The notes under the pieces were generated by a model. It had not been told where the DNA came from. It saw nothing but the letters and a program-made list of their open reading frames with translations, and made no database searches. A stretch of DNA of 64,000 bases from a virus. A program made the translations under genes and the position numbers. The stretch's first letter is position 1. Each line of letters starts with the position of its first letter. The stretch covers positions 1,859 to 65,858 of IMG/VR virus record IMGVR_UViG_3300048080_000202; one strand, written 5' to 3'. Positions 18,569-33,534 of the stretch are shown here, one piece after another.

Positions 18569-18954
18569 TTCACTTTCCTTATGCTCTGCACACTGTACAT
18601 TGGAATATCTAATGTCCTTCGAGCAGAATCATCTCCCGCTTCTTGAGCGATTACTATCCAATCTTTATCTTCGTATAATAAATATCCAACATCATTTAAT
18701 AGTGCCCCGACTCTATACTTCCCCGGAGCTACATTCCCGGCCCAATTCGCGGCGTCCAACCACGTTACTTCCACTATCTGTGGTTTCTTGAACTCCGGAA
18801 TCACTATCTCCCGCTTCTTGAGCCTCCCAAGCTTTCTCTTCATCTCCCTTATCCCTTTCAATTGTGATTGCCCCCGAGAATCCATAGGGGGTTTCTCCTT
18901 TGCACCGAGCCCGCAGGGGTCCGCCCACTCCAAGGTGGTCGATCCGCATTTCAA
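18565..18954 (-). CDS. Conserved phage hypothetical protein
   Basis: 'VEVTWLDA...VGYL..ED...IVIAQ...IP...V..I' pattern; the real start is probably 'MKRKLG'. Confidence 0.6.
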   Translation of the reverse strand: MKCGSTTLEWADPCGLGAKEKPPMDSRGQSQLKGIREMKRKLGRLKKREIVIPEFKKPQIVEVTWLDAANWAGNVAPGKYRVGALLNDVGYLLYEDKDWIVIAQEAGDDSARRTLDIPMYSVQSIRKVK

Positions 18955-19114
18955 TCATCTCTGAGGGTTCGTTGCAGATGATGCAGTTTTTAACCTCCCG
19001 CACAATGAAATCCTGTCCACACCCGGGGCACTTCTCAATCCGCAGGCGCAGCGGCCACGTGTGGCCTGCGGAGCATCTTGCGAATGTGCAGGGGGTGAGG
19101 GGTTTTTCTGCCAT
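18713..19114 (-). CDS. Zinc-ribbon protein
   Basis: 'RCSAGH', 'CPGCG' and 'CIICN' Cys pairs. Confidence 0.55.
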   Translation of the reverse strand: MAEKPLTPCTFARCSAGHTWPLRLRIEKCPGCGQDFIVREVKNCIICNEPSEMIEMRIDHLGVGGPLRARCKGETPYGFSGAITIERDKGDEEKAWEAQEAGDSDSGVQETTDSGSNVVGRRELGRECSSGEV

Positions 19115-19362
19115 TTATCTTGACACCATCCCCATACAGAATGGGCATACTCGATAAATCGGGAAATATCGTGCCCCGCAAATTGGGCAGGGTATAACAC
19201 GAGATGGTGTCATGAATTCTCCCCGCAATTCTCACACAACACATCGAACTTCACATCCCCGTCGGGCATACGCTTAGACTTCACAGTAAACACAGACTTC
19301 ACTCCGGGGACATCTGAAGTGTGGTCAAACAAGAAGTCAATAAAATCTTCACAGTAAAGCAT
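19115..19362 (-). CDS. Two coupled microproteins (19210-19362, 50 aa; 19115-19213, 32 aa CPxC-CPxC)
   Basis: Manual translation: MLYCEDFIDF...CENCGENS after SD GAGGTGGAGG, and MTPSRVIPCPICGARYFPIYRVCPFCMGMVSR with an ATGA overlap. Confidence 0.55.
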
Positions 19363-19380
19363 TCCTCCACCTCACCAATC

Positions 19381-19409
19381 ATTCTACCACAAACTCTCAC
19401 AAAATGCAA
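19381..19409 (-). promoter_or_regulatory. Sigma70-type promoter TTGCAT-N17-TAGAAT
   Basis: 17-nt spacer with extended TG, upstream of the SD and ATG at 19362. Confidence 0.7.
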
Positions 19410-19599
19410 TACCCTTTCTGGGGACATAGTAAGCCAGGAATTTTTCTCTTTCCTTTTCAAAACAATTGACTCGCCTCCCCTTATATATACACCCCTTGTT
19501 GTATCTCACAAGGCCTGACCATACAACAAGGGGGTGTTACATATATATAAATATATAATATTAAAAAATAAAAGAGTATAAACCAAGAAGAAAAACCCC

Positions 19600-19929
19600 T
19601 CACACATCTGGACAACCTCTTTCCTTCTCCCGTTGGCAGTTCAGACACAGGAGTTCATAGTCCGGGGATTCCATGAGAACTGCATGGTAGATTGAGTACC
19701 AACCTTCTTTCTTGGAGGTCTTACGTGTAACAAGTAATCCAATCACTTTATCATAACCACATCTCTCACATTTCCCCCCAAGCTTTTCAATCGCCTGTGA
19801 GCGAAGCTTTGCTTGATACCTCTTCTGAGGAGAAACCGGGGTCTCGGGCTTTTCAATCTTTGCTTTCTCCCAAGATTCCTTCACCCACCATGACTCGTTG
19901 ATTTGTTCTTGAAGTTCCGCAGGAATCAT
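19600..19929 (-). CDS. Degenerate HNH-like zinc-finger protein
   Basis: 'GGKCERCGY...YELLCLNC', lacking the 'DH' catalytic motif. Confidence 0.6.
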   Translation of the reverse strand: MIPAELQEQINESWWVKESWEKAKIEKPETPVSPQKRYQAKLRSQAIEKLGGKCERCGYDKVIGLLVTRKTSKKEGWYSIYHAVLMESPDYELLCLNCQREKERGCPDV

Positions 19930-19930
19930 A

Positions 19931-20260
19931 TTAGTCGGGGAGATTCAGTGGTGTCACCAAATTCCCCGTCCCCTTCATTTTGATCTCTTTTTCCCCATCC
20001 AAAATCCAACAATTCGCACAAAGTAACTGGCTAGTCTTCTCGCCCCACACAATATCTTCACAAATTTTAGCGACCGTTTTCTCCCGGGTATCCACTCGAA
20101 GCGCTCGTGAATCGTTAAATCCACACTTCTCACACTTTGATCCGTAGAATTCCAAAATTCTCTGTCTCTGCCTTTCCAAGAATTTCCTTTGGTACCCCCT
20201 CACCTTCTCTGGGTTCCTCTTCGCCCACTCCCTTTGGTATCCAATTTCTCCAATTTTCAT
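19931..20260 (-). CDS. Degenerate HNH-like zinc-finger protein (paralog)
   Basis: 'GSKCEKCGFNDSRALRVD...QLLCANC', with no catalytic His. Confidence 0.6.
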   Translation of the reverse strand: MKIGEIGYQREWAKRNPEKVRGYQRKFLERQRQRILEFYGSKCEKCGFNDSRALRVDTREKTVAKICEDIVWGEKTSQLLCANCWILDGEKEIKMKGTGNLVTPLNLPD

Positions 20261-20286
20261 ATTCAGTCTCCTTTGACTGTAAGGAT

Positions 20287-20315
20287 ATTATAACACACTC
20301 CTCTCTCGTTGTCAA
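20287..20315 (-). promoter_or_regulatory. Consensus sigma70 promoter TTGACA-N17-TATAAT heading the leftward arm
   Basis: Perfect hexamers, 17-nt spacer and extended TG; RBS GGAG before the ATG at 20260. Confidence 0.9.
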
Positions 20316-20745
20316 GAGAAAAGAATCGAAATGATATCTGAATTTTTTCTGTATTTTCCGCGAGTAACCCCACCGCCATACGCGCGTGCGCGTGCGCGTG
20401 CGATGGACTGACCCGTCCCCGTCAAAGGAAATGAATAGTACGTTTGGCGCTACGCGGGAAGAAAACAAACGACTTCGGATAATCCCAGGTATGCTAGGGT
20501 ATCACACGCGCACGCGAGGTCTTGCGGAGCGCTCCAGTAGTCTAACTATGGGAGTGGAGCGGGTCGCCTCTTCCGGCGGTCGAACTAGAATCCAGCGCCG
20601 GGCGATCTTCCGCCAGGTGGCCCGCCGTGGGCTGGGCGTGGCCCGCCCTGCGGTCGCAGGACATGAAGTGCAGGTATTGCCCGATTCGGCAATTATCAAC
20701 GGGTTAGCTTGTGGAAAACTGTGCAAGACCTGGGTATGGCTAACG

Positions 20746-20810
20746 GCTCACATGATCTGAGTTTGGGTTACTCACATTATCTAAGTGTCCAAGACTCATG
20801 ATATATGAGT
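20746..20810. promoter_or_regulatory. Three 17-bp palindromic operator-like sites (ACTCA-N7-TGAGT) at a 24-bp period
   Basis: GCTCACATGATCTGAGT at 20746, ACTCACATTATCTAAGT at 20770 and ACTCATGATATATGAGT at 20794. Confidence 0.65.
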
Positions 20811-21143
20811 GCAGGATTGACAGGATTATCTAAGGGTTTCAGGCGCATATTTCGGCATATCTGAGTGTTCGGCGCGCACATAGCTTTAGAATCAGCGGTA
20901 GTCATTACTGAGTAGGGCGAATTTACCGGCAGATTTTACCGGGCGGGCAGATTTTACACGATTCGGCGGAAGTTCCAGCGGAATCAACAGGATAGCGGCG
21001 AAAATCGCCGTGGAGCGGCTAGAATCGAGTAGAATTTACATGGGCGAAGAAAAAGCGAAGATCTTTAGAATCAGCGACTTGCGGCGGGTTCGAGGTTTGG
21101 CAATCGGGCTGCAACCTGGGGTCTGCGCCGAACCAGGCGAGTT

Positions 21144-21271
21144 ATGCTCTATAGTAGCACAGGATATGCGGAAAGGGTAGACGGGTTGAAGTCATGCTTC
21201 ATAGAATCCAGTCTAGAGCAGGGTACCGAACAATCTACCCTTTCCGCGCATCCTGCGCCCTATAGGAGCAT
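21144..21271. repeat. Imperfect inverted repeat with 38-nt arms covering the RBS of the first rightward gene
   Basis: 21144-21181 versus 21234-21271; the core GCGGAAAGGGTAGA/TCTACCCTTTCCGC is perfect. Confidence 0.8.
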
Positions 21272-21272
21272 T

Positions 21273-21629
21273 ATGGAACCACTCAAAACAGTAACACCAC
21301 TGGTAGCGGTCGAAGATCCAATGGCCGCTATCTGCGAAGAACTCAACGCTGCGCCGGAAAAGGCGTCGGAGAAATACCCGCCTTGCCCCGCTACGTTGAT
21401 GATTCGGGAAGGGAAATACGTCCTGGAAATCGACCCTTCGGTTCTGGCGAAGTTCCTTCACCCAATGAAGGAAAAGGCGAAGAAAGACAAGGCCGGTAAC
21501 GAACTGAAGCTGGCCGATGGCACGTCAGTGATGGAACGGCCAGGTGGCCGCACTACGTACCTCGCTGTGAAAGCCATCACCGTCAACAAGAGGGAGTTTA
21601 CCATCAACGCGAACGCTTTCCTGCGGTAA
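21273..21629 (+). CDS. Early hypothetical protein
   Basis: SD GGAG before ATG 21273; followed by a terminator-like hairpin. Confidence 0.7.
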   Translation: MEPLKTVTPLVAVEDPMAAICEELNAAPEKASEKYPPCPATLMIREGKYVLEIDPSVLAKFLHPMKEKAKKDKAGNELKLADGTSVMERPGGRTTYLAVKAITVNKREFTINANAFLR

Positions 21630-21645
21630 TTCCGGCAGGCACACG

Positions 21646-21686
21646 AACGGCCAGAGGTTAATAGCTTCTGGCCGTTAAGTGTTTTT
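21646..21686 (+). terminator. Intrinsic terminator-like hairpin
   Basis: AACGGCCAGAG/TTCTGGCCGTT stem followed by a T-rich tail (GTTTTTC). Confidence 0.55.
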
Positions 21687-21692
21687 CGGATC

Positions 21693-22157
21693 ATGTCACT
21701 AACTAGCAAAATCTACGGCGACCAGGAACGCGACGGTATTCCACGTGGCCCCGTTCGCAAGCGCCTGGCGTACACCTTGCCAGAGATCGGTGAGTGGCCG
21801 CAGGAGTGGTTCGAGACACCGGACCAGGCGCTGGGCAAGAGGATCGATCGAGACGTCGCTTATCGCGGACCGCGATTCAAGAAACCCGAGGTACAAGCTC
21901 CAGCCGAAAGGGACACCGCTCCGCTCACGGATATGGAAGTCCAAGCGTTTATAACAGCGTGTTTCGAGGGAGCTTCTTCCGTCCCCTGCTGCCCCGCAAC
22001 GGTCACCGACCAACGGGGGGAGTACACTTTGCGGGCGGGCGAACGGGTACAGCCCAAGCTACATGACCTCACTGGACTTCCTATCGTCCGTGTCGAGGGT
22101 ACGTGCATGGTACAACCCGTGCCAAGGCGGGCAAAAGGAGTATTAAAAAACCCATGA
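21693..22157 (+). CDS. Early hypothetical protein
   Basis: 154 aa; shares the 'CPAT...G.Y.L' motif with 21273-21629. Confidence 0.6.
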   Translation: MSLTSKIYGDQERDGIPRGPVRKRLAYTLPEIGEWPQEWFETPDQALGKRIDRDVAYRGPRFKKPEVQAPAERDTAPLTDMEVQAFITACFEGASSVPCCPATVTDQRGEYTLRAGERVQPKLHDLTGLPIVRVEGTCMVQPVPRRAKGVLKNP

Positions 22158-23415
22158 CCACCAGTATCTCTGACCCTGTTATCCTGTTAGAAGTCCAGGA
22201 CTGGTTGTGTGAGAAACCGGACTTCAAGGAATTGCGAATTTTCAAGCTCCGTTATCTCATGAAGTGGGGGATAATGCCTTTAGACGTTTTGGACAGAGTG
22301 ACGCGTGGGGAGTTGACGATGGCGGACGCCCTGGGAGGGGCGAAAGAATGAATGTGATTAGCATTCCTTGTGAATGGAAGTTGTTGTACTATGTGTATGC
22401 CCCGTTTTTGTTGTTTGCGAGGCAGCGCTTATGAACACCGAACACGAGGTGGACAAACGCGACACGAATGTGACTTTCTGTCGCACGTGTGGGTACCTCG
22501 CTGGTAAATCCCCCAAAGCGAGAGCGGAGTCGTTTTGCGTTGGGGATGTGAGAGACCCCGGGAAGGAGATTTTTGATGCTGAAGTTAGCTGAATGTCCGG
22601 TCTGTGAAACGTGCTTATACGACGGGCATTCACCCAAGACTCATGGGTTCCTGGCGAAGATGCGCAGGTTTGTGAGGCGTCACAAGGAGTGCAAACGTGC
22701 AAAGAAGAAATAAATGGGGTGTGAGAGAAGCACTATTGGCGGAAGCCCAACACATCCTGTGGTTGTTCAATAACCACTTCATCCAGGGTTGGGAGTTTGT
22801 GCTTCGCAGCACCCGGGTAAAGCGAAGGATGGAGAAAGTGGGGATGATAGTATGAAACACCAACGTATATTGTACGAGGAGATTCTTGCCAAGAATTTCG
22901 TTTGGCAAAAACTAGAGGAAGGTCATAGCGTGGCTATGGCAGTAGAGATTTCAGGAGTTCAAACAAAGTACTATGTTAATTGGGATTGAGCGTACCTCGA
23001 TTTAATTCTATAACATGCTTATAGAATTAAATGGGGGTTACTAAACGTTCACCTTCAAAAGCCATAGCAGATTTAAGGCGGGTAACCCCCAAAAGGGAGC
23101 CATTGGAATGACACACCCAAAGCGCGATGGATGGAAGGGCCGGAAGGCGAGTGGGGGACGGGCGAATGTGCCGGATACACGGGTGAAGCCCGAGCGTCCT
23201 CGGCAGGTGTGGGTGTTGGAACCGGGGTTGGAGCGTTTTGAACCCATGAAGATTTTGTCCACAGGAGATCGCACGTGAAATCCCCACGGTCCTATCTCCG
23301 ACGGCTGGGAAAGCGTCGATACCCAAGAAGTGGAAGCCAACCCAAAAGGAGCGTGCCATGCGCGATACCGAACCGATCGACGAGTAGACTAATGAGCAAT
23401 TCGACGGCCATGAGA

Positions 23416-23690
23416 TAGTGTTTCGACCCACCCTGCGAGGTAACATCCCCCAAGGCGGTATTGGGGTTTCATCCCTCGTGGGGGTGGGTGGGGTCACTAC
23501 AGTGGAGGCATCTAGCACCATAGGTGCAGAGTGAACCTAAGCACTCACGCTTCCCCCAAGAAATAGACCACCACGCGCAATACCCGTTGAAGCTAGAAAC
23601 ACACTCGGCATACGCGGGGCATAGCAGCAGGTGAAATAGTGTGATAGTAACCTGTGGAACGGAACTCTAATCCGTCGGAGTGGTGGTCTA
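23416..23690 (+). ncRNA. Candidate structured non-coding RNA
   Basis: Long hairpin 23416-23499, then a multibranch domain closed by an 11-bp TAGACCACCAC/GTGGTGGTCTA stem with a possible loop-loop pairing. Confidence 0.5.
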
Positions 23691-24487
23691 AAATAATTAA
23701 GAGGAAAGATATGTTTTCAAGATTGATTGTCGCAATCATGTTCATATGGGCGTTATTCGCCTTATTCACCTCCGAGGAGTACGAAACTCCTGAGAGTGTG
23801 AGTGTACCAAGGGTGAGGTTGTAAGGGAAGCCATGGAGCTAACTCTCCTCGACCGCCTCAAAGCAGAGAATCTCCTCCTCGCGGAGATTGACTTCCGTCG
23901 TGCATGTGAGGGGGATGTGAATGAGGAGCTTGCCATTCCGGCGATTGACCCCGAACACACATACCATCTTGCGCAGATTGTAGAGCACACACTTGTGGCG
24001 AGACACCTCCGAGAGTTAGAGGAGGAGTGGAGGGGGAATCCCGGGAACCCAAGGGTTGTGAGTACTCTTTCTGCTCTTGAATGTGCCGCGTGTGACATGG
24101 CGGGGGTGGCGGAGAGGATAAGGAAGGCGTGGGGGTATCGAAATGACTAAACTCCGGAAGTCCCAGAAGCATACCCTTCGTGTGTGGATTGCTGCAACTA
24201 GGAAAGCTGTTAAGAAGGGTAAAGAACCGCCTCCTGCCCCAAGGTTTAACTGAGGTTAATATGCAAAGATCGTGGAAACAAATCTTATTTCCAACCACTA
24301 TTCTAGGTCGCCCTTATACTCCAGAAGAGAAGCTAGCCACCGATGAGGACATGATGGGTGAAGAAAGGTGCGCGATGATTTACGAAATGCGCACTGGTGG
24401 GCGGTGTCTGCTGATAGATACAATGGTAGGTGGGTTTCTCACAGCTATGTTGCTGGCTTTAGTTGTAGTGCTGGTGGCGGTGGTTTT

Positions 24488-25012
24488 GTGAAAACCGTTC
24501 TTTTCGTCGACGGTGGGTATGTGGAGAAGATTTCCCAAGCCCGTTTGGACTACCGAAAGCTCCCAGGGGCGCTCCTCAAAGCTGTAGGGGGAGGTCACCT
24601 GCTTCGCACGTATTATTATGATTGTGTGCCAGGGCAATATGAGAGTAATAAGCAGAAGTTCTTGGATGCTTTAACATACATCCCAAATTTCGTAGTGCGA
24701 TATGGACACCTTGAAAAGCATGTGGGAAAGGATGGGGAAGAAGTATTCACCCAGAAGATGACGGATGTCCAGCTAGCATTGGATGTATTAAAAGCGGCAC
24801 AGAATGGGGTGGAGAGAGTGATTGTTATGACCGGGGACATGGATTTTGTCCCGGTGTTTGAAGCAGCAAGGGAGGTAATGTGTGAAGTGGTGTTGGTTAG
24901 TGGAACCGGGGTGACGCCGATGTTGGCGGGGAGTGTGGATAGGAAAGTGACGTTTGGGGGGGTGTTGCAAGAGGAATGTCGGTGGAAGAATGGGGAGGAG
25001 AGAATATTATGA
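24488..25012 (+). CDS. NYN-domain (LabA/DUF88, PIN-like) ribonuclease
   Basis: GTG start overlaps the upstream stop; 'FVDGGY', 'RTYYYD', 'QKMTDVQLALD' and 'MTGDMDFVPV' carry all the acidic catalytic residues. Confidence 0.85.
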   Translation: MKTVLFVDGGYVEKISQARLDYRKLPGALLKAVGGGHLLRTYYYDCVPGQYESNKQKFLDALTYIPNFVVRYGHLEKHVGKDGEEVFTQKMTDVQLALDVLKAAQNGVERVIVMTGDMDFVPVFEAAREVMCEVVLVSGTGVTPMLAGSVDRKVTFGGVLQEECRWKNGEERIL

Positions 25013-25863
25013 AATGCGCAGCATGGGATCGACTTATTGACTTAGGGGAACCAAGTTGTAAAGAGTCTAATGAAGAGTTCTTATGTACATTAGGAGATGG
25101 ACACCTATATGAATGCCATGCGCACAGTGCAAATGGGAACTGCCTTCATATTTGGATGGCGGTCAAGAAAACACCGCGTCAAGTGCGCATGGAGAGGAAC
25201 AACAGGAATGAAGGAAGGTAAGGGAGGAAATATGAACGAAGGTGAAACTCTCTTTAGTTTAATAGGTGCAATGCTTGATGGGCTTAAAAACCCGCCCCAG
25301 CCCATGTTTCGCACTCAATGTGATAATGGGTTATCTGTTTCTACTGTGAACACCTCTGATATGGGAATGGAAACAGCAATTATTGCGCATTGTCATGCGC
25401 ATCCTGTGGAGAGATACAAGGATTCTGCGAAAGCCGCAAAAGCGGGACACAAAAAGTGGGTGGAGTTTTGTAACCAAGAGAATGTGATTGGGAAGAAGAT
25501 TACTGAGCTTGGGTGTGGGTGTGTTGAGAGTAGGGAAATAACTCTATGAACAAAGAGTGGCAATTTATAAGACATCGACTTCGTGGTGAAGTGTTAACTG
25601 TGAAACGCAACGGGAGGACTTGGGCAGAATTCCTCCCCTCCACCCTTGATTCAGCCAAACTTTACGCAGAGCGGTGGTGTGTGTGAGTGAAAAGCAACGA
25701 AAGCAGTTGTGGAATAATGGTGTGGAGTTGGAAGCGTCAAAACTAGGAAACGTGCGGTCGCAATTGAGTCCTGATTGTGAGTGGAGTTTTACTGGGAAGA
25801 AGAAATTTGGGGGGAATGTGATTGCAGCAGAGAAATTGGTGGCTGGAAAGTTTGGTCGTTAAA

Positions 25864-25952
25864 GCTGGCATGGTAAAGAGGGGAGTTACATCATACTGCT
25901 ATTATGTGGGGGCGCAAGCTCCCAGTCGCTCCCTTCGTTTGTTCCTGCCAGC
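25864..25952 (+). ncRNA. Y-RNA-like RNA 1
   Basis: GCTGGCA/TGCCAGC terminal stem, TGGTAAAG/CGTTTGTTCC internal loop, GAGGGGAG/CTCCCTTC upper stem and a GCAA tetraloop hairpin. Confidence 0.75.
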
Positions 25953-25959
25953 AAAAGTT

Positions 25960-26032
25960 CTTGGGTGTGGTGAAGTTGGGGATTCCTTCATTTTGGAATG
26001 ATAAAGAGCCCCGGCGTTTGTGCCCACCCAAG
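25960..26032 (+). ncRNA. Y-RNA-like RNA 2
   Basis: CTTGGGTG/CACCCAAG terminal stem, TGGTGAAG/CGTTTGTGCC loop and GTTGGGG/CCCCGGC upper stem. Confidence 0.7.
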
Positions 26033-26038
26033 GAGAGA

Positions 26039-26134
26039 TTCCAACATGGTGAAGAGTGGAAATCCTTCATTGGAGCAGGAATGCTGCTTCGGCAAGCGCC
26101 TGCATTTAGGTCCGCTCGTTTGTTCCTGTTGGAA
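26039..26134 (+). ncRNA. Y-RNA-like RNA 3
   Basis: TTCCAACA/TGTTGGAA terminal stem, TGGTGAAG/CGTTTGTTCC loop, GAGTGGA/TCCGCTC upper stem and a UUCG hairpin; ends 17 nt before the Ro60 start. Confidence 0.75.
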
Positions 26135-26151
26135 GCATTAAAGGAGATAAT

Positions 26152-27507
26152 GTGAAAATCAATCATAAACCCGCTCCGATATTCACTCATGAAGGTGGAA
26201 GGGCTTCCAGGACGTCGGATGTTAATACGCTTCGACGGTTGGTGTTGAATTGTCTTCTTTGGGAACCGACGTTTTATGAAAGTGGCAATGCGATTGCGGC
26301 ACAGATTGCAAAGTTGGTGTCTAAGATTGATCCTCAAACTGTTGGTGATCTGGCGAAAGAAGCGCGGAATAATATGTATCTGCGGCATGTCCCATTGTTC
26401 CTTGCAAGGGAGTTGGCAAGAAAAGGTAATGGCTCGATTGTGGCAGATGTGTTGGAGGAAGTTGTACAACGTGCGGATGAGTTAACGGAGTTTCTTGTTA
26501 TTTATTGGAAGGACGGAAGGAGCCCTTTGAGTGCGGGGGTCAAACGCGGACTCGCCAAGGCATTCCGAAAGTTCAACGTCTATCAGCTTGCGAAGTATGA
26601 TCGCGCAAACACGGTGAGGTTGAGGGATGTATTGTTTCTTACCCATCCCAAACCCAAGGACCAAGACCAACAAGACGTGTGGGACAAGTTGGTGCAAAAT
26701 GAGCTTGAGGCTCCAGACACTTGGGAGGTAGCACTGAGCGCGGGGATGAACAAGAAAGAAACATGGGAGAGATTATTGAGGGAAAAGAGGCTGGGTGGAT
26801 TGGCTACTCTCCGAAATCTCCGAAACATGTTGTCTGTTAGTGTGGATGTGGAGTTAATCAAGGAACGTTTGAATGACTCCATGGGAAAGATATTTCCGTA
26901 TCGGTTTATCACAGCAGCTAAGTATGCCCCGAAATTGGAGGCTGCTCTCGAACACGCAATGCTTGGAGCGATTGATAAAGAGTTGGTTCTCAAAGGGAGA
27001 ACATGCCTTGTTGTGGATGTGAGTGGGTCGATGGATGGAGCAATGAGCAAGAAATCTGAAGCCACAAGAATTGACACTGCATGTGGATTGGCAGTATTAC
27101 TTCGTGAGGTGTGTGAGGACTTGGTGGTATATGCAACTGGGGGAGATGATGGAAGGAACATTCACGCCACAGCGGAGGTGCCTGCAAGACATGGATTTGC
27201 ATTGAGAGATGCAATTGATGGATTAAAGGGTAAATTGGGTGGTGGGGGAATATTTCTTGCTCAATGTATGGATTATATTGCCAGTAAGGAGAAAGCGGAA
27301 TTCGAAAGAGTGATTGTGTTGACAGATGAACAGGATTGTGATAGAAATCGCACAGCGATGTCAGCGAAGAAATTGGGGAAGGTGAATTATACATTGAATT
27401 TAGCTTCGTATCAGAATGGTACTAGCTATGGGAGCGGTTGGCATCTTGTGAATGGCTGGAGCGACCAAGTAGTGAGATATATTCAATTGTTGGAGAGTGA
27501 GCAATGA
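26152..27507 (+). CDS. rsr: Ro60-related (TROVE + vWA) RNA-binding protein
   Basis: 'THEGG', 'LRRLVLNCLLWEPTFYE', 'YQLAKY...LRDVL.L.HPKP' and 'TWE..LS'; vWA MIDAS 'VDVSGSM' and 'VLTDEQ'. Confidence 0.95.
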   Translation: MKINHKPAPIFTHEGGRASRTSDVNTLRRLVLNCLLWEPTFYESGNAIAAQIAKLVSKIDPQTVGDLAKEARNNMYLRHVPLFLARELARKGNGSIVADVLEEVVQRADELTEFLVIYWKDGRSPLSAGVKRGLAKAFRKFNVYQLAKYDRANTVRLRDVLFLTHPKPKDQDQQDVWDKLVQNELEAPDTWEVALSAGMNKKETWERLLREKRLGGLATLRNLRNMLSVSVDVELIKERLNDSMGKIFPYRFITAAKYAPKLEAALEHAMLGAIDKELVLKGRTCLVVDVSGSMDGAMSKKSEATRIDTACGLAVLLREVCEDLVVYATGGDDGRNIHATAEVPARHGFALRDAIDGLKGKLGGGGIFLAQCMDYIASKEKAEFERVIVLTDEQDCDRNRTAMSAKKLGKVNYTLNLASYQNGTSYGSGWHLVNGWSDQVVRYIQLLESEQ

Positions 27508-28220
27508 TTCATGGTTACAACGCTGAACCCACTGGAGGTTGGGTTATTCAGGGAGTTGTAAAAAACCCAATCGGAGTAGAATTAGAGGTGGATTATCAGG
27601 GGTATGAGCCAACTAATCAGCACTATTGTTGTATAGACTGCCATGGTCCTCGCAGCATATGGGAGGGCCAAAGACTAGAGTCAATTCAAACAAAAATTGA
27701 TGAAAAACTAGCAGAAGTGAAATGGCTGTTTCTCAAACGAGACAGCTCGCTCAAGAACGGCGTGGAGGTTGTGAGTCATCCGATGGGACTAGGGAGTCAC
27801 AAGAGAAAGTGGCCGGAGGTATTGGAGTTTTTGGGGGGTGTGGGAAAGTTGCGGCCACACGATGAACAGGGGCTTCATTTTCATTTTAAAGTTCAGGAAT
27901 ATCAGATAGTACGGGATTTTGTATTAGACTATCCTAAAGAATTACAAGAGATTGCGGGGAGGGGAGAGAATGAATTTTGTGTGTTTAACAAAGGAAATCA
28001 TCACCATTCTGTTATTAACCGCCGAGACGATAACAGATGTGAGTTTAGGCTCTGTCGATCGACAGTGAAGATAGATGAATTCTTTGCTCGTCTTGAACTC
28101 GCTCATGCGCTTGCATCGATTGCGAGTGTGGAGGAGATGGAGTGGGGGGAGTTTTGGGAGAGGTGTCAAGAGAGGCCGGTGATGTATAAGGAATTGTTAT
28201 TGATTGGGGGAAAGTCATGA
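27504..28220 (+). CDS. Amidoligase-like (COOH-NH2 ligase family) protein
   Basis: 'IGVELEV', 'DSSL.NGVEVVSHP', 'GLHFHF' and 'EFRL'. Confidence 0.7.
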   Translation: MIHGYNAEPTGGWVIQGVVKNPIGVELEVDYQGYEPTNQHYCCIDCHGPRSIWEGQRLESIQTKIDEKLAEVKWLFLKRDSSLKNGVEVVSHPMGLGSHKRKWPEVLEFLGGVGKLRPHDEQGLHFHFKVQEYQIVRDFVLDYPKELQEIAGRGENEFCVFNKGNHHHSVINRRDDNRCEFRLCRSTVKIDEFFARLELAHALASIASVEEMEWGEFWERCQERPVMYKELLLIGGKS

Positions 28221-30030
28221 CCCCACAATACCGACTGTCGGAGTTTGGCGGGGATATAGAGATAGTTGATAATAACACTGGATGGGTTGAGTGTGTGGTG
28301 GGTATAGAATATAAAGAGGACATGGAGAGATATGTGGAGTATTTGAATGGAAAAGACGTGGATGATCGGTTGGGGGCGGTGGAGAAATGAAACCAACAAG
28401 TTTAATATGGAATATTTTCCTAGTTAGTGGGTGTGCATATCTAGTATTTTGGAAAGGGGCGTCTCCCTGGTGGCTATTGATACTACCGTTTTTCACATTA
28501 TGGACAATCACCTTAGATAAGAAGGAAAAGGGATAAGTCTAAATGAAGTGTCCATTATGCAAGAGTAAAAAAACAGAATCCATAAGCCACTATGTGTACA
28601 CGGATTGGTGTAAGACTTGCGGGACATTGTTTAGAAACGGGGTTGTTAATCGCCCTGATCGTTGGGTGAGTGAAGCAGAGTTTCGGTGGTCAACAAAGAT
28701 GTTGCTAATTGAGCTACAGAAGAGACTTTTAACGAAAAGAGGTTTGAAACAATTAAGAGTAATAGCACACCAATGTGGGTGTGGTGCCCACAGTACTTGC
28801 TCAGACTGTCAAGTTCCAGAATGGATGAGGTTTACAAAATAGTGGACAAACCCCATATTGGGCTGTTGCTTTTTTGGATCTTTGCAAATCTTGTGGTGTG
28901 GTTTGGGAGGAAGAGATGAAAATAGTCGTTGGTATAATACTGATCTTTGCCCCACCGGAGGAATACGAGTGTTATGGAGATGACATATTGGATTCACGGT
29001 GGGTTTGTCCATGCCGGGTGTTTATGCTAGCAAGATTCGATGTGTTTTTACTATGAATCTCCTTGAACTCCTTTTCTGCCCCCAACACGGGATGTTAGGG
29101 GTGTTACTATTGATTCCCACTTCAGCGTGTTTGAGGTATGTAAAAGTTTGGTGGAGGAGGAGAAATGCTTGATCTAACAAAGAAGATACAAACACGAGGC
29201 GGATATCCTGTAAGAATACTTGAATCCAACCTCAGGGGAAATGATTTCCCAACTAGCAAAACTATCGCCATTCTCCACACATTCTTCGAAGGCACCGAAG
29301 GAGACGGACTTGAGTGAAAAAGCAATAACACTCCGTTTACTCTCCCCAAAGGAAGTATGTGAGGAATTCGGGCACCTCGCAATCACCATTGAGCCCGAGC
29401 AAGGGAAGTATGCAAAGTGGTGCCCGAGGTGCGGGGAGAGAGTGAGTGTGGATACGCCGGGGAGGATTGTATGAAATCAACTGCGTGGGGCATTGTTCTC
29501 GTGTTATTTTGCACGTTTGGACTCCCAACACTATTTTTGTTTGGGGCTAAATGGATAGCGGTACTGTCAAGGTGGTTGAATCTATGAAATCAATCATTAT
29601 CGTCGGAAACGTGGTGGATGGGTTGAATTTCTATGGACCGTTTGATAATGCGGGGGATGCAATGAAGTATGCGGAAGATATATTTAAGAATTCCACCTGG
29701 TTGGTGACGACATTGTATAGCAGGAATTCCCCAATAGTTCGAGGATTCAAAAATGTACTCTGACGGGCAAATAATTCACAATTTTGACACAGGGAAGCCT
29801 ATAAAAGTGGGGGATGGGCGATCTGCATTCGTGTGGGCTGGACTACCCAAAAGACATACACATTATTTAAGGGGTAAAGGAGTATTCTTGGCTGCCTCTG
29901 TTAAAGAAGCGTGGAAATTACTTCTTCAAGGACTTATTGTGCCTGCGCCTTGTGGGGAGAATCATTGTTGGGATTGTAGAAATTGGCTGAGTAATTCTAA
30001 AGCGAATTGGTGTAAGAATAAGGACCACAA

Positions 30031-30558
30031 ATGATCTTACAAAAACTATACGAACTCGCCAAGCACGTCAAGCCCGTGGGGAATGCTCGGGTGATGGCGG
30101 CGGTGGTGCAGAAGGGGAGGATTGTGTGTGTCGCAAGTAATGAGAAGAAGAGTGATCCGAGTCAAAAGAGGGCGAACAAAGGACTATGTAAATGTGGACA
30201 CATAAAATATGAACATGCTGGTCCTGGATGCTTGGCTGTTGTACAAGAGACCAAAGGATATTGTTTGTGTACGATGTTTGCAGCGATTGAAGAAGAGAGA
30301 ATCTACTGGCACGCCGAAACCAAGGTAATCAAACGTGCAAAGAAACTTATCAAGGATTCCAATGGATACTTGAATGGTTGTGTGTTGTATGTGGCGAGGG
30401 CGAAGAAGAAGGTGATTGAGAAAAACGTAAATAAATATGAGTTTTTTCGACGGATTGTTTGGACCCCCGGCCTCGCCCGCCCCTGCGAAGGCTGTTGGAA
30501 GGCGATTGCGGAGAGCGGGATTACGAAGGCGGAGTGGACAAAGGATGAGTGTTTCTGA
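30031..30558 (+). CDS. Zn-dependent cytidine/dCMP-deaminase-fold protein with inserted zinc finger
   Basis: 'HAE' and 'ARPCEGC' deaminase motifs; insert 'CKCGH...H...C...CLCTMF'. Confidence 0.8.
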   Translation: MILQKLYELAKHVKPVGNARVMAAVVQKGRIVCVASNEKKSDPSQKRANKGLCKCGHIKYEHAGPGCLAVVQETKGYCLCTMFAAIEEERIYWHAETKVIKRAKKLIKDSNGYLNGCVLYVARAKKKVIEKNVNKYEFFRRIVWTPGLARPCEGCWKAIAESGITKAEWTKDECF

Positions 30559-32044
30559 TAGAAACATGAGTGATGCAATTGATCAGATCGCTTATGATTT
30601 GAAATATTATCATTTGTTCCTTGATTAAAGACCCCTGGGATGCTGAGTACCAAGATGACTCACTCATCTCAGTCCATCCTGCAAGTGGGAAACAGAAGCC
30701 ACTAAAAACAGACAACGATCAATCCCTTCGGGGAAGTATCAAGTTCTGTCAGTGGTGGAAAGGAAGAGGAGTTTATATAATGATTATTCTTCCGCTCCCT
30801 CCTCTTTTTGCATTCCTATCCCCGGTGGTTGCAGGCTTGGGGGAAACGGGTGGACAAAATTTTCAAACTAGGAGAAACCAATGCAAAAGCTTAGGACTAC
30901 GAATAATGCGAACGGGCTTGGCACAGTCACATTGGGAACAATTTGCCTCATTAGTGGTTTGATGTTAATAGGACTTAAACTTCCTGTGGCAATTGGGGTA
31001 TTTCTTACTTTATTTGGGTTACGAGTATTATGGGTGTATTGTCAATGATTCAAATATCGGTTGGCCCAAGGATTCCGTTAGAGAAATTTTTGCGTGGTGA
31101 GATAAAATGTCCAAAGTGTGGAAAGGCTTGGAATCTTATTAGGTGTGTTTGTGGTTTTAACCCAAAGGCGAAGAAACAAAAGGAGAAATAACATGATTGA
31201 GATTGTAAAAGAACCACGCAAACCCAAAGAAGTTTTTACCGATGTAAGAGCCCTTCCTATGGGCTTATGTGTTGTAGACTGGGTGAATGGAAAGAGTTAT
31301 CTTGTTCTTACCCGTCCTATAGATGGTACTACCTGTATTAACATAGATGGTTTGAGCAGTGGGCACTGGATAAAAAATGGTTCTTACGTGAAAAAAGTCT
31401 ATAGAATTAAAGAGGTTATAGTGGAAGAGATATGAAACCCATTTGTAAGTGGTGCAAAACTAACCTCTGTGTATGGGGGATGGATTTGTGTAATCGTTGT
31501 TGGGAGCTGTTAAGAATTGCAGGTATTGAATGACCCACCGCCGTCGATTGTTCAACGCCACCAGAGCCCCAGTAAGAATATCCGTCCCCTCGGGTTCGAT
31601 CATCCTGCCAGTGTATGCAGGGATGGACTTCGTGGAAGACACGGAGAACAAATTGGTGGTATTGGATGGGGGATTGCGGGTTCCTGTAGTTAATGTAGAA
31701 AGTGGTTATGATATCCCTGATCCCGAAGAAAAGACCGTCTTTATTGTTTCTGAGGATGTATTTCGGATGGTGGGGCGGAGGAGAGATATGACAATGGTGT
31801 ATCCCGGAGATCGATCGATGTTTTTGAGAAGAGATTTCTGGTGTACCGGGAGAAAGGCGAGGGTGAAGTAATATGAAATGTTTGCATTGTGAGAGTGAGG
31901 ACCTCAAGTTTATTAAGGATGTGGGGAATTATTCCCTTACGTGGTGTAAAATGTGCGGAGCTTTATCACATTTTTATCTGTTTAACACAGGAGTGAATTA
32001 TAAAGAGATTCCACACACTTGTGTGGTTGATTTTTAAGGAAAAA

Positions 32045-32716: not shown

Positions 32717-32739
32717 TCTCTCCAGACCCTCACAGTAAA

Positions 32740-32952
32740 CCAAACGAAGTATGGATGCTTCCACGCAGACGGAGGAATAGGGTGTCGAAGACCACACACC
32801 TTGACTGTGTAATCCACAGTGAGTACTCCTATCACGACTTTCGTGGCTGCGATATGGCCCATACTTGAGCCGAAGGATGAATACCATAATGGGAAATCCC
32901 AGTGGTGAGCATCTGCGTTTGGCTATGGGGATACGGCTAACTGATAGGAGTA
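32740..32952 (+). ncRNA. Candidate pseudoknotted non-coding RNA
   Basis: Intergenic; TACTCCTATCA/TGATAGGAGTA (11 bp) crosses AAGTATGG/CCATACTT (8 bp). Confidence 0.4.
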
Positions 32953-33534
32953 GTTATAAATGAGATGTTATATTGGACTAGACGGTCATTTGTATGTGCG
33001 TGGCTTGTTAGATATTTTGCTTTATCGTTCTAAAAATAGGTGGATAATTAAGGGATGTGATGAATAAAGACATCATTCGCTCGATGTTCTTCCATTGGCA
33101 TCAATGCCATACGTGCCGGAGGTTGTATCGGCACATGGATGTGGGGTGTAAGGCATCTACTATCCGGGGGTGCCGAATAGTTAATTGTAATTATGTAGCT
33201 AACAAGCTATTTCGCCCAGACCATTTCCATAAATGTATTGTGTGTTCGGGGCTTATGCAGTGTGCAGGGGCGGAAGCGAAGGTTTGTGAGATCCGAAGAA
33301 TTCAAACGGTGTGCTTTGGGTGTCAGACAAATGTTGGAAAAGGGGTGATTGTATGAAATGTAATGGAAGACTTCGAATTAAGCAAAATGATTACTGTCAT
33401 GATAACGGTGAATTAGATCGTGTGAATATTGTTTTTATTTATTGCCAAGAAGATCTTGGGCACTCTAGTAAACATATACACCATAATCATGTGTTTTGTG
33501 TAACATGGGAGGAGAATAAAGTAGAAGGAGAGGT

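Follow-up and report, generated by a model that had tools for sequence, protein, structure and literature searches.

A stretch of 275 bases in an ORF-poor gap of a phage genome was found to fold into three adjacent RNA modules, an interrupted hairpin (H0), a three-way junction (M) and a four-way junction (J). The structure is real and non-coding, the + strand is favoured for it, and it lies outside the known RNA families. We tentatively read H0-M-J as an element that acts in cis on the early mRNA, in its processing or its stability; this reading is plausible and still short of probable. As it stands, the element is a well-folded orphan which gives no basis for functional claims. If the modules were conserved in closer relatives, they would make up an undescribed structured RNA in a phage that carries a Ro60-Y RNA system, a nuclease and an RNA ligase, and might reveal in what way phages arrange or shield the transcripts of such RNA toolkits.

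Genomic setting and coding potential

The source record is an IMG/VR virus of 75,304 nt, rated complete by CheckV. The window, i.e. the whole stretch of 64,000 nt that was analysed, covers bases 1859-65858 of this record. Left of ~19.1 kb the genes, packaging genes among them, are on the minus strand and read leftward, and a perfect sigma-70 promoter at 20315-20287 also points leftward. From ~21.1 to 52 kb every credible gene is on the + strand; the structured stretch therefore sits early in a rightward operon. The features of the gap and of the genes that follow it are listed in Table 1. These downstream genes include the NYN nuclease gene, 0.8 kb from the structured stretch, and the Ro60 gene (Rsr), whose start is 2,462 nt from the end of J. 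The Ro60 of this phage has thousands of homologs, of which the nearest are 59-61% identical.

Table 1. Position of the gap, of its structural modules and of the genes downstream
Feature	Position	Strand	Remarks
ORF-poor gap	22990-23710	+ strand operon	~720 nt; holds the 275-base structured stretch 23416-23690
Upstream part of gap	22990-23415	+	overall fold not significant (z -0.33); no convincing ORF
H0, interrupted hairpin, 84 nt	23416-23499	+	MFE -45.3 kcal/mol, z -3.41, 0/200 shuffles as stable
M, three-way junction, 51 nt	23504-23554	+	MFE -20.7, z -2.80, MFE = 40% of ensemble
Unpaired linker CCCAAGAAA	23555-23563	+	between M and J
J, four-way junction, 127 nt	23564-23690	+	MFE -43.4 kcal/mol, z -3.09, 1/200 shuffles as stable
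Candidate kissing contact	CACACU 23600-23605 (H1 loop) / AGUGUG 23638-23643 (H2 loop)	+	six Watson-Crick pairs
A-rich linker and first downstream gene	23691-23824	+	Shine-Dalgarno GAGG 23701-23704, ATG 23711
37-codon ORF, hydrophobic peptide	23711-23824	+	first gene 3' of the structured stretch
105-aa ORF	23833-24150	+	
103-aa ORF	24180-24491	+	
NYN-domain nuclease, 214-aa ORF	24368-25012	+	Pfam 3.6e-14; call in the record: 174 aa from 24488
150-aa ORF	25097-25549	+	
Ro60 (Rsr)/TROVE protein	26152-27507	+	Pfam TROVE 2.7e-16, phrog_850 7e-39

Two further hairpins were seen upstream in the operon. The only strong intrinsic-terminator-like site of the early operon is located at 21646-21676 on the + strand, just after ORF 21144-21629, and consists of a 14-bp hairpin and a T-run. 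An AT-rich hairpin (22994-23038; 20-nt arms with 14 perfect pairs, 5-nt loop) begins 5 nt past the stop codon that ends ORF 22789-22989. It lacks a U-tract behind it on both strands; it may mark a place of RNA processing, of factor-dependent termination or of protein binding.

The coding potential of the gap was analyzed with a codon-usage score trained on the 33 longest ORFs of the phage (at least 250 aa). The flanking + strand ORFs (21144-21629, 21693-22157 and 23833-24150) score ~10-12; nothing between 22990 and 23710 rises above ~5. The sole sizeable ORF in the gap, of 164 aa on the minus strand (23027-23521), is annotated as a gene in the record. We rejected the coding reading of this ORF: a comparison with 5.8 billion protein clusters gave no homolog, the ORF has no Pfam or PHROG match and no ribosome-binding site, and its codon score is under the listing cut-off. 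The earlier note, which had described a structured RNA here, had named a conserved protein-coding ORF as the alternative; such an ORF was looked for and none was found, the 164-aa ORF being an orphan without domains. The structured stretch is thus non-coding. Two small + strand ORFs, 23108-23278 (56 aa) and 23275-23418 (47 aa), are very rich in Arg and Lys. They have Shine-Dalgarno-like sites, a GTGA start-stop overlap and weak codon scores, and may be spurious. The TAG stop of the doubtful second one forms the first three bases of H0; if real, this 47-aa ORF would resemble an arginine-rich RNA-binding peptide sited just before a structured RNA.

Three modules and their strand

On the + strand, positions 23405-23700 have a MFE of -109.4 kcal/mol (z -3.52), a stability reached by 0 of 200 dinucleotide shuffles, and the three modules form independently of one another. 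All the helices named in the earlier note were recovered where it had placed them; it had described the hairpin H0 and the multiway junction J and had missed junction M between them. H0 folds as it had been described. Its lower stem has ~23 pairs (UAGUG/CACUA, UUC/GGG, ACCCACCC/GGGUGGGU, UGCGAGG/CCUCGUG) with two one-base bulges, and is surmounted by a 7x7 internal loop, a 6-bp top stem (CCCCAA/UUGGGG) and a 7-nt loop. M is closed by the stem GGAGGC/GCUUCC and carries the hairpins GCACC-AUA-GGUGC (23515-23527) and GAGUG-AACCUAAG-CACUC (23529-23546). The word TCCCCCAAG, at 23552-23560, recurs in H0 at 23446-23454.

The perfect 11-bp stem of J (P0, 23564-23574/23680-23690), described before as enclosing three helices, was confirmed and has no bulge. 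The first helix, H1 (CCCGU/GCGGG, 23583-23587/23614-23618), has a 26-nt loop in which an inner helix is possible; H2 (GCAGGU/ACCUGU, 23627-23632/23650-23655) has a 17-nt loop and H3 (ACGGA/UCCGU, 23659-23663/23671-23675) the 7-nt loop ACUCUAA. In a partition-function fold of 23405-23780, the pair probabilities of J are mostly at least 0.9 and all within 0.64-1.0, and those of M are 0.74-0.96. Kissing between the loops of H1 and H2 had also been proposed. The complementarity is present, but its significance did not hold: a six-base match occurs in 4.3% of loop shuffles (P = 0.043), which is not significant given the several possible loop pairs to count, and the putative loop-loop contact is suggestive only. 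The distance from the fold to the ribosome-binding site, given as about 20 nt, also needed correction, as the end of J and the Shine-Dalgarno are 10 nt apart, the 20 nt being the distance to the ATG.

The minus strand of the same stretch gives a weaker fold (MFE -102.3 kcal/mol, z -2.18). The region of M folds differently there (z -0.74), so that M is specific to the + strand. H0 forms a hairpin on both strands, with a MFE of -39.5 on the minus strand; it is 6 kcal/mol weaker there because four G.U pairs turn into A.C mismatches. J reaches z -2.10, and since its core pairs are all Watson-Crick, J alone cannot settle the strand. The + strand, which is that of the operon, is favoured by these predicted folds because the minus fold is weaker overall, M is absent from it, J is weaker and H0 loses 6 kcal/mol. 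The opposite orientation was considered in the form of a small antisense RNA, read from the minus strand across the leader of the 37-aa ORF, which would start from the promoter-like site at 23720-23693 and end after the closing stem, behind which the minus strand reads UAUUUCUU. At 23720-23693 the minus strand does contain a promoter-like sequence (TTGAAA-16-AATTAT), the stem has a U-rich tract after it in this orientation, and the all-Watson-Crick core of J folds on both strands. Yet promoter sites are no commoner than in shuffles (3 vs 2.2; 24 vs 24.8), the minus fold is the weaker one and M does not form in it, and we regard an antisense RNA as very improbable.

Known families and relatives

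Rfam 15 was searched with the whole window and with the 306-nt element, and also, at E <= 10, with the segments 22800-24300 and 19000-32000. At gathering thresholds the whole window gave only two tRNA-model matches, both outside the structured stretch. At E <= 10 the best matches of the 306 nt alone were at chance level (NiCo, 16.8 vs 37 bits; mir-1180, 18 vs 49). The NiCo alignment omits two of the helices of the family and bypasses the closing stem of J. The statement that the structure matches no known riboswitch or ribozyme therefore stands, the Rfam search proposed along with it having returned nothing at threshold.

Aptamers are often built as four-way junctions with loop-loop contacts, and J could be the ligand-binding domain of a new riboswitch for the downstream operon. 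It is a four-way junction right upstream of a gene start, and its best Rfam match, weak as it is, is a riboswitch at 16.8 bits. Against this, the NiCo score is far under the 37-bit threshold with two helices and the closing stem unused, neither a terminator nor an anti-Shine-Dalgarno competes with J, and none of the downstream genes is of a metabolic or transport type. The 37-codon ORF has its Shine-Dalgarno and start codon ~50% unpaired, outside the fold and not occluded by J. With no competing anti-Shine-Dalgarno either, no riboswitch platform is visible, and we give this reading hardly any weight. The proposal of a cis-regulatory element or a stand-alone ncRNA was therefore supported in part: the stretch is non-coding, folds better on the + strand and belongs to no known family, while regulation of the riboswitch type found no support.

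The helix lengths of J (5, 6 and 5 bp) recall a cloverleaf. A tRNA or tRNA-like RNA was nevertheless rejected: no Rfam tRNA model matches up to E = 10, the loops of J are 26 and 17 nt long, and the conserved bases are absent. ARAGORN at an 80% threshold found nothing in J, its only match (23661-23745) clipping the 3' end of the module.

The proximity of Ro60 led us to compare the element with Y RNAs. Chen et al. 2014 (PMC4201824) found YrlA-type Y RNAs no more than 4 kb from Ro60 and encoded on its strand. J agrees with this in place, ending 2,462 nt before Ro60, and, by its fold preference, in strand. CGAA is the motif that was used to find Yrl1 and Yrl2 of the Thermus phage phiLo (PMC12135203). 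Neither it nor the Ro-binding motif GNCGAAN0-1G occurs on the + strand of 23400-23700. No Y-RNA family appears among the Rfam 15 results for the structured stretch, at gathering score or at E <= 10, and J has no T-arm or D-arm mimic, the H3 loop ACUCUAA not being a T-loop. The phage has its own Y-RNA motif pair, TGGTRAAG ... CGTTTGTKCC, which is found exactly three times in the 75-kb genome. These sites (25871/25936, 25968/26015 and 26047/26117) correspond to three Y RNAs at 25864-26151; the strict pair is absent from the structured stretch. The identity of the element as a Y RNA was rejected, as it lacks the Ro-binding motif, tRNA-like arms and the motif pair of the phage.

Two side observations concern Y-RNA-like sequences. 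In the upstream part of the gap, 23161-23245 contains a GGCGAATG word fitting GNCGAANG and a relaxed form of the motif pair (GGTGAAG at 23182 and CGTTTT at 23234, 52 nt apart); no convincing Y-like stem was found in this segment, and its z is near 0. In three other phage loci (L003:5543-5669, L008:1520-1644 and L011:5666-5789), Rfam reports 'tRNAs' of 124-127 nt directly upstream of Ro60. They have normal acceptor, D and T arms, and an insert of ~50 nt in place of the anticodon arm, which carries the Ro-binding motif (GGCGAAG, GGTGAAG and AGCGAAG, respectively). From their sequences these RNAs look like tRNA-shaped Y RNAs, non-permuted and with their ends in the acceptor stem, unlike YrlA.

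Relatives of the element were sought with two covariance models, R1 for J (27 pairs) and R2 for H0 and M (45 pairs). The DNA searched comprised ~2 Mb around Ro60, NYN and terminase genes, and 61 whole related viral records, i.e. 50 viral records (47 chosen for Ro60 and 3 for NYN) and 11 terminase relatives. The metagenome Ro60 set consists of 80 loci among the matches listed, and the closest relatives are not in this set. In 80 viral and these 80 metagenomic Ro60 loci (the latter among the matches listed) R1 found only J itself, and it had no match in the 50 whole viral records, 47 of them with Ro60; J does not regularly accompany the Ro60 of phages. Both models found nothing in the NYN loci (viral and GTDB genomes) or in the 11 whole terminase-relative records, and no second copy elsewhere in the genome of the phage. 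No DNA similar to the structured stretch was detected by BLAST and nhmmer over the loci searched, so that in these collections the only sequence recovered by BLAST, nhmmer, R1 and R2 is the element itself. A stem pattern has 37 matches in IMG/VR, close to the chance expectation, none of them with the interior of the element. Scans with single proteins (Ro60, the 105-aa ORF, a 909-aa ORF and P0123) found no relative, and similar DNA or neighbour proteins were not found in cultured phages.

The element is missing from two complete terminase relatives (terminase 52-54% identical), and is therefore not a conserved part of the early operon of this phage group. The early regions of these two relatives have no detectable protein in common with that of our phage, save a 154-aa Ro60-like ORF in one. 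This ORF is like Ro60 residues 2-62. The two provirus records L267/L268 (G053, G054: 28185-28367, minus strand; terminase 54%) have only such a 154-aa ORF, divergent from the terminase as in this phage; it could be what is left of Ro60, or an N-terminal segment that exists on its own. A record with an 87% identical terminase (L253) is a fragment that opens within the ORF 18713-19114 homolog and misses the element by ~4.3 kb. Closer relatives of the neighbourhood are known from proteins: the NYN homologs P0122 and P0123 are 69% and 61% identical, and the homologs of the 105-aa ORF, P0125 and P0126, 49% and 53%. P0123 and P0128, a member of the P0126 cluster, are on one 47.7-kb JGI contig. The contigs of P0122 (JGI, 2,114 nt), P0123/P0128 (JGI/IMG, 47,733 nt), P0125 (ENA, 1,349 nt) and P0126 (Logan, 962 nt) are not in IMG/VR and lay outside the homolog searches.

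These results bear on a second function, in which J above all, or the other modules, would be a stand-alone small RNA cut from the early transcript, as the Y RNAs of this phage must be. Such an RNA might act as a scaffold, decoy or guide with Ro60, the NYN nuclease, the RNA ligase or the CCA-adding-like enzyme. J is closed and well defined with high pair probabilities, another gene-free gap of the phage holds the three Y RNAs, and the NYN gene and, within the 4-kb rule (PMC4201824), a same-strand Ro60 are near. The lack of a Ro-binding motif, of the Y-RNA motif pair and of tRNA-like arms argues against it, as do the absence of a similar RNA from the 160 Ro60 loci (the metagenomic ones among the matches listed) and the 50 whole viral records and the lack of a promoter or terminator of its own. 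We hold this reading to be possible and somewhat doubtful, nearly as likely as the processing element because another gap of the phage holds RNA genes. A more specific and rather unlikely form of it is that H0-M-J is a new lineage-restricted multi-domain ncRNA of ~275 nt, or J alone a new four-way-junction RNA of 127 nt, released from the early transcript and working with Ro60 and the three Y RNAs, the NYN nuclease and the RNA ligase, for instance as scaffold or decoy. If true, this would be an RNA class without described relative.

Structural background, possible function and comparable known systems

The fold was set against its background by scanning the + strand from 1 to 27 kb in 362 windows, each 150 nt long. 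Their mean z is -0.48, and 3.6% are at z <= -3. Window 23401-23550 ranks 4th of the 362; the window containing J has a z of only -1.8. Window 23701-23850, which covers the 37-codon ORF together with the first codons of the 105-aa ORF, ranks 2nd (z -4.1 in the scan, -3.04 with 200 shuffles). It is folded as strongly as the flagged element, so that the structured zone extends into coding sequence. A further strongly folded segment nearby is 21151-21300 (z -5 in the scan).

Perfect inverted repeats are also in excess: of those that reach 11 bp or more and fit within 150 nt, the window contains 12, vs 1.6 +/- 1.2 in shuffles. Half of them (6/12) lie at 19.4-23.7 kb, and the closing stem of J is one of the 12. 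Long perfect stems are clearly selected or generated in this phage genome. Several of the 12 are inside genes, hence such stems alone do not mark RNA genes.

Some of these repeats deserve a description of their own. At 20383-20517 a (CGCGTG)n repeat and its complement form an 18-bp stem around three hairpins, a junction-type element of ~135 nt which lies in the divergent control region beside the leftward promoter. Four independent perfect inverted repeats of 11-12 bp (at 23564, 32824, 52318 and 20383) each enclose 105-112 nt, and three of the four start and end with TA. A miniature transposon was considered for the TA-bordered repeats and dropped: the four share neither arms nor interiors, which rules out a single mobile element. 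The gene-free gap 32717-32975 (z -2.45) folds into an irregular long hairpin with an 11-bp closing stem, unlike J; a paralogy of J with this element (32824-32952) was rejected, the folds being different and neither covariance model matching.

This background has to be weighed in two alternatives. The inverted repeats could act as DNA, for instance in the initiation of replication, in recombination or in the binding of a protein, and perfect inverted repeats are indeed abundant in the early control region. The G.U pairs and the strand-specific M, however, point to RNA; the stretch has neither iterons nor an AT-rich unwinding segment and the replication genes are far off, which leaves a role as DNA very unlikely. 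The stretch could also be functionless, a lineage-specific spacer or a remnant of lost genes with a fold that is a by-product of a repeat-rich genome. It is a single copy with no homolog in the collections searched, the upstream 430 nt of the gap have no significant fold, and there is a selection effect, since the region was picked after all 64 kb had been read; the proportion of windows at z <= -3 and the repeats found in excess, several of them in genes, point in the same direction. Three adjacent modules, each with a z of ~-3 and a very well defined ensemble, argue against an absence of function, as do the preference of the fold for the transcribed strand via G.U pairs and an idle gap of 720 nt, which is unusual for a tightly packed phage genome. 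We consider this reading doubtful too, and as likely as the stand-alone RNA, because of the orphan status of the element and the genome-wide excess of inverted repeats.

No intrinsic terminator flanks the modules on the + strand and promoters there are no better than chance, so that the modules are most simply part of a read-through early transcript. Phage early transcripts carry processing hairpins between cistrons, such as the T7 R sites, the lambda N leader and sib. The geometry of RNase III-type hairpins (at least ~20 stacked pairs, an internal loop, a location between cistrons) is found in H0, and because of this likeness in shape to the T7 and lambda processing hairpins we favour, tentatively, the cis-acting processing or stability element. 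Further points in its favour are the z of -3.52 for the stretch and of ~-3 per module, the + strand preference amid genes of that strand, the ORF-free gap, a ribosome-binding site that is half open and outside the fold, and an early region in which long perfect inverted repeats and other strongly folded segments (21151-21300, 23701-23850) are frequent. The structured stretch would be an intercistronic part of the rightward early transcript, presumably transcribed with the operon, and H0 a putative RNase III-type cleavage site. A cut at H0 would separate the upstream cluster of small ORFs from a downstream message encoding the 37-aa, 105-aa and 103-aa ORFs, the NYN nuclease, the Y RNAs and Ro60. 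The new 5' end would carry M and J, ahead of the open A-rich ribosome-binding site, and the two modules may protect it. Against a processing element speak M and J themselves, which are more elaborate than a processing site needs, the absence of the element from the two complete terminase relatives, the z of only -1.8 for the window with J, and the occurrence of long perfect inverted repeats inside genes of the phage as well.

Among known systems, the bacterial and phage Y RNAs (YrlA) resemble the element by their location near Ro60 on the same strand and by a closed stem with a multi-helix module of ~130 nt. In YrlA-type RNAs, however, the Ro motif sits near the 5' end, in the stem of the two ends, whereas the closing stem of J is free of bulges. 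Four-way-junction riboswitches (NiCo RF02683, SAM-I and Mn2+ yybP-ykoY) likewise have a closing helix and three hairpins upstream of a gene, but J has neither their conserved cores nor an expression platform. The packaging RNA (pRNA) of phi29 is a multi-helix junction with two mutually complementary loops able to pair between molecules. Junction and complementary loops are alike in J, with no sequence or model match; our phage packages with a terminase, not with a phi29-type motor, and its loop complementarity is not significant (P = 0.04). The T7 sites R0.3-R1.3 and the lambda N-leader and sib sites have no sequence relation to the element, M and J are additional to them, and cleavage of H0 is a prediction only, for an uncultured phage. 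The likeness to these sites is one of place and shape: like them, the element is intercistronic in a polycistronic early operon and has no terminator tail, and the hairpin H0 is, like theirs, long and irregular, spanning about two helical turns and with its internal loop beneath a short top stem.
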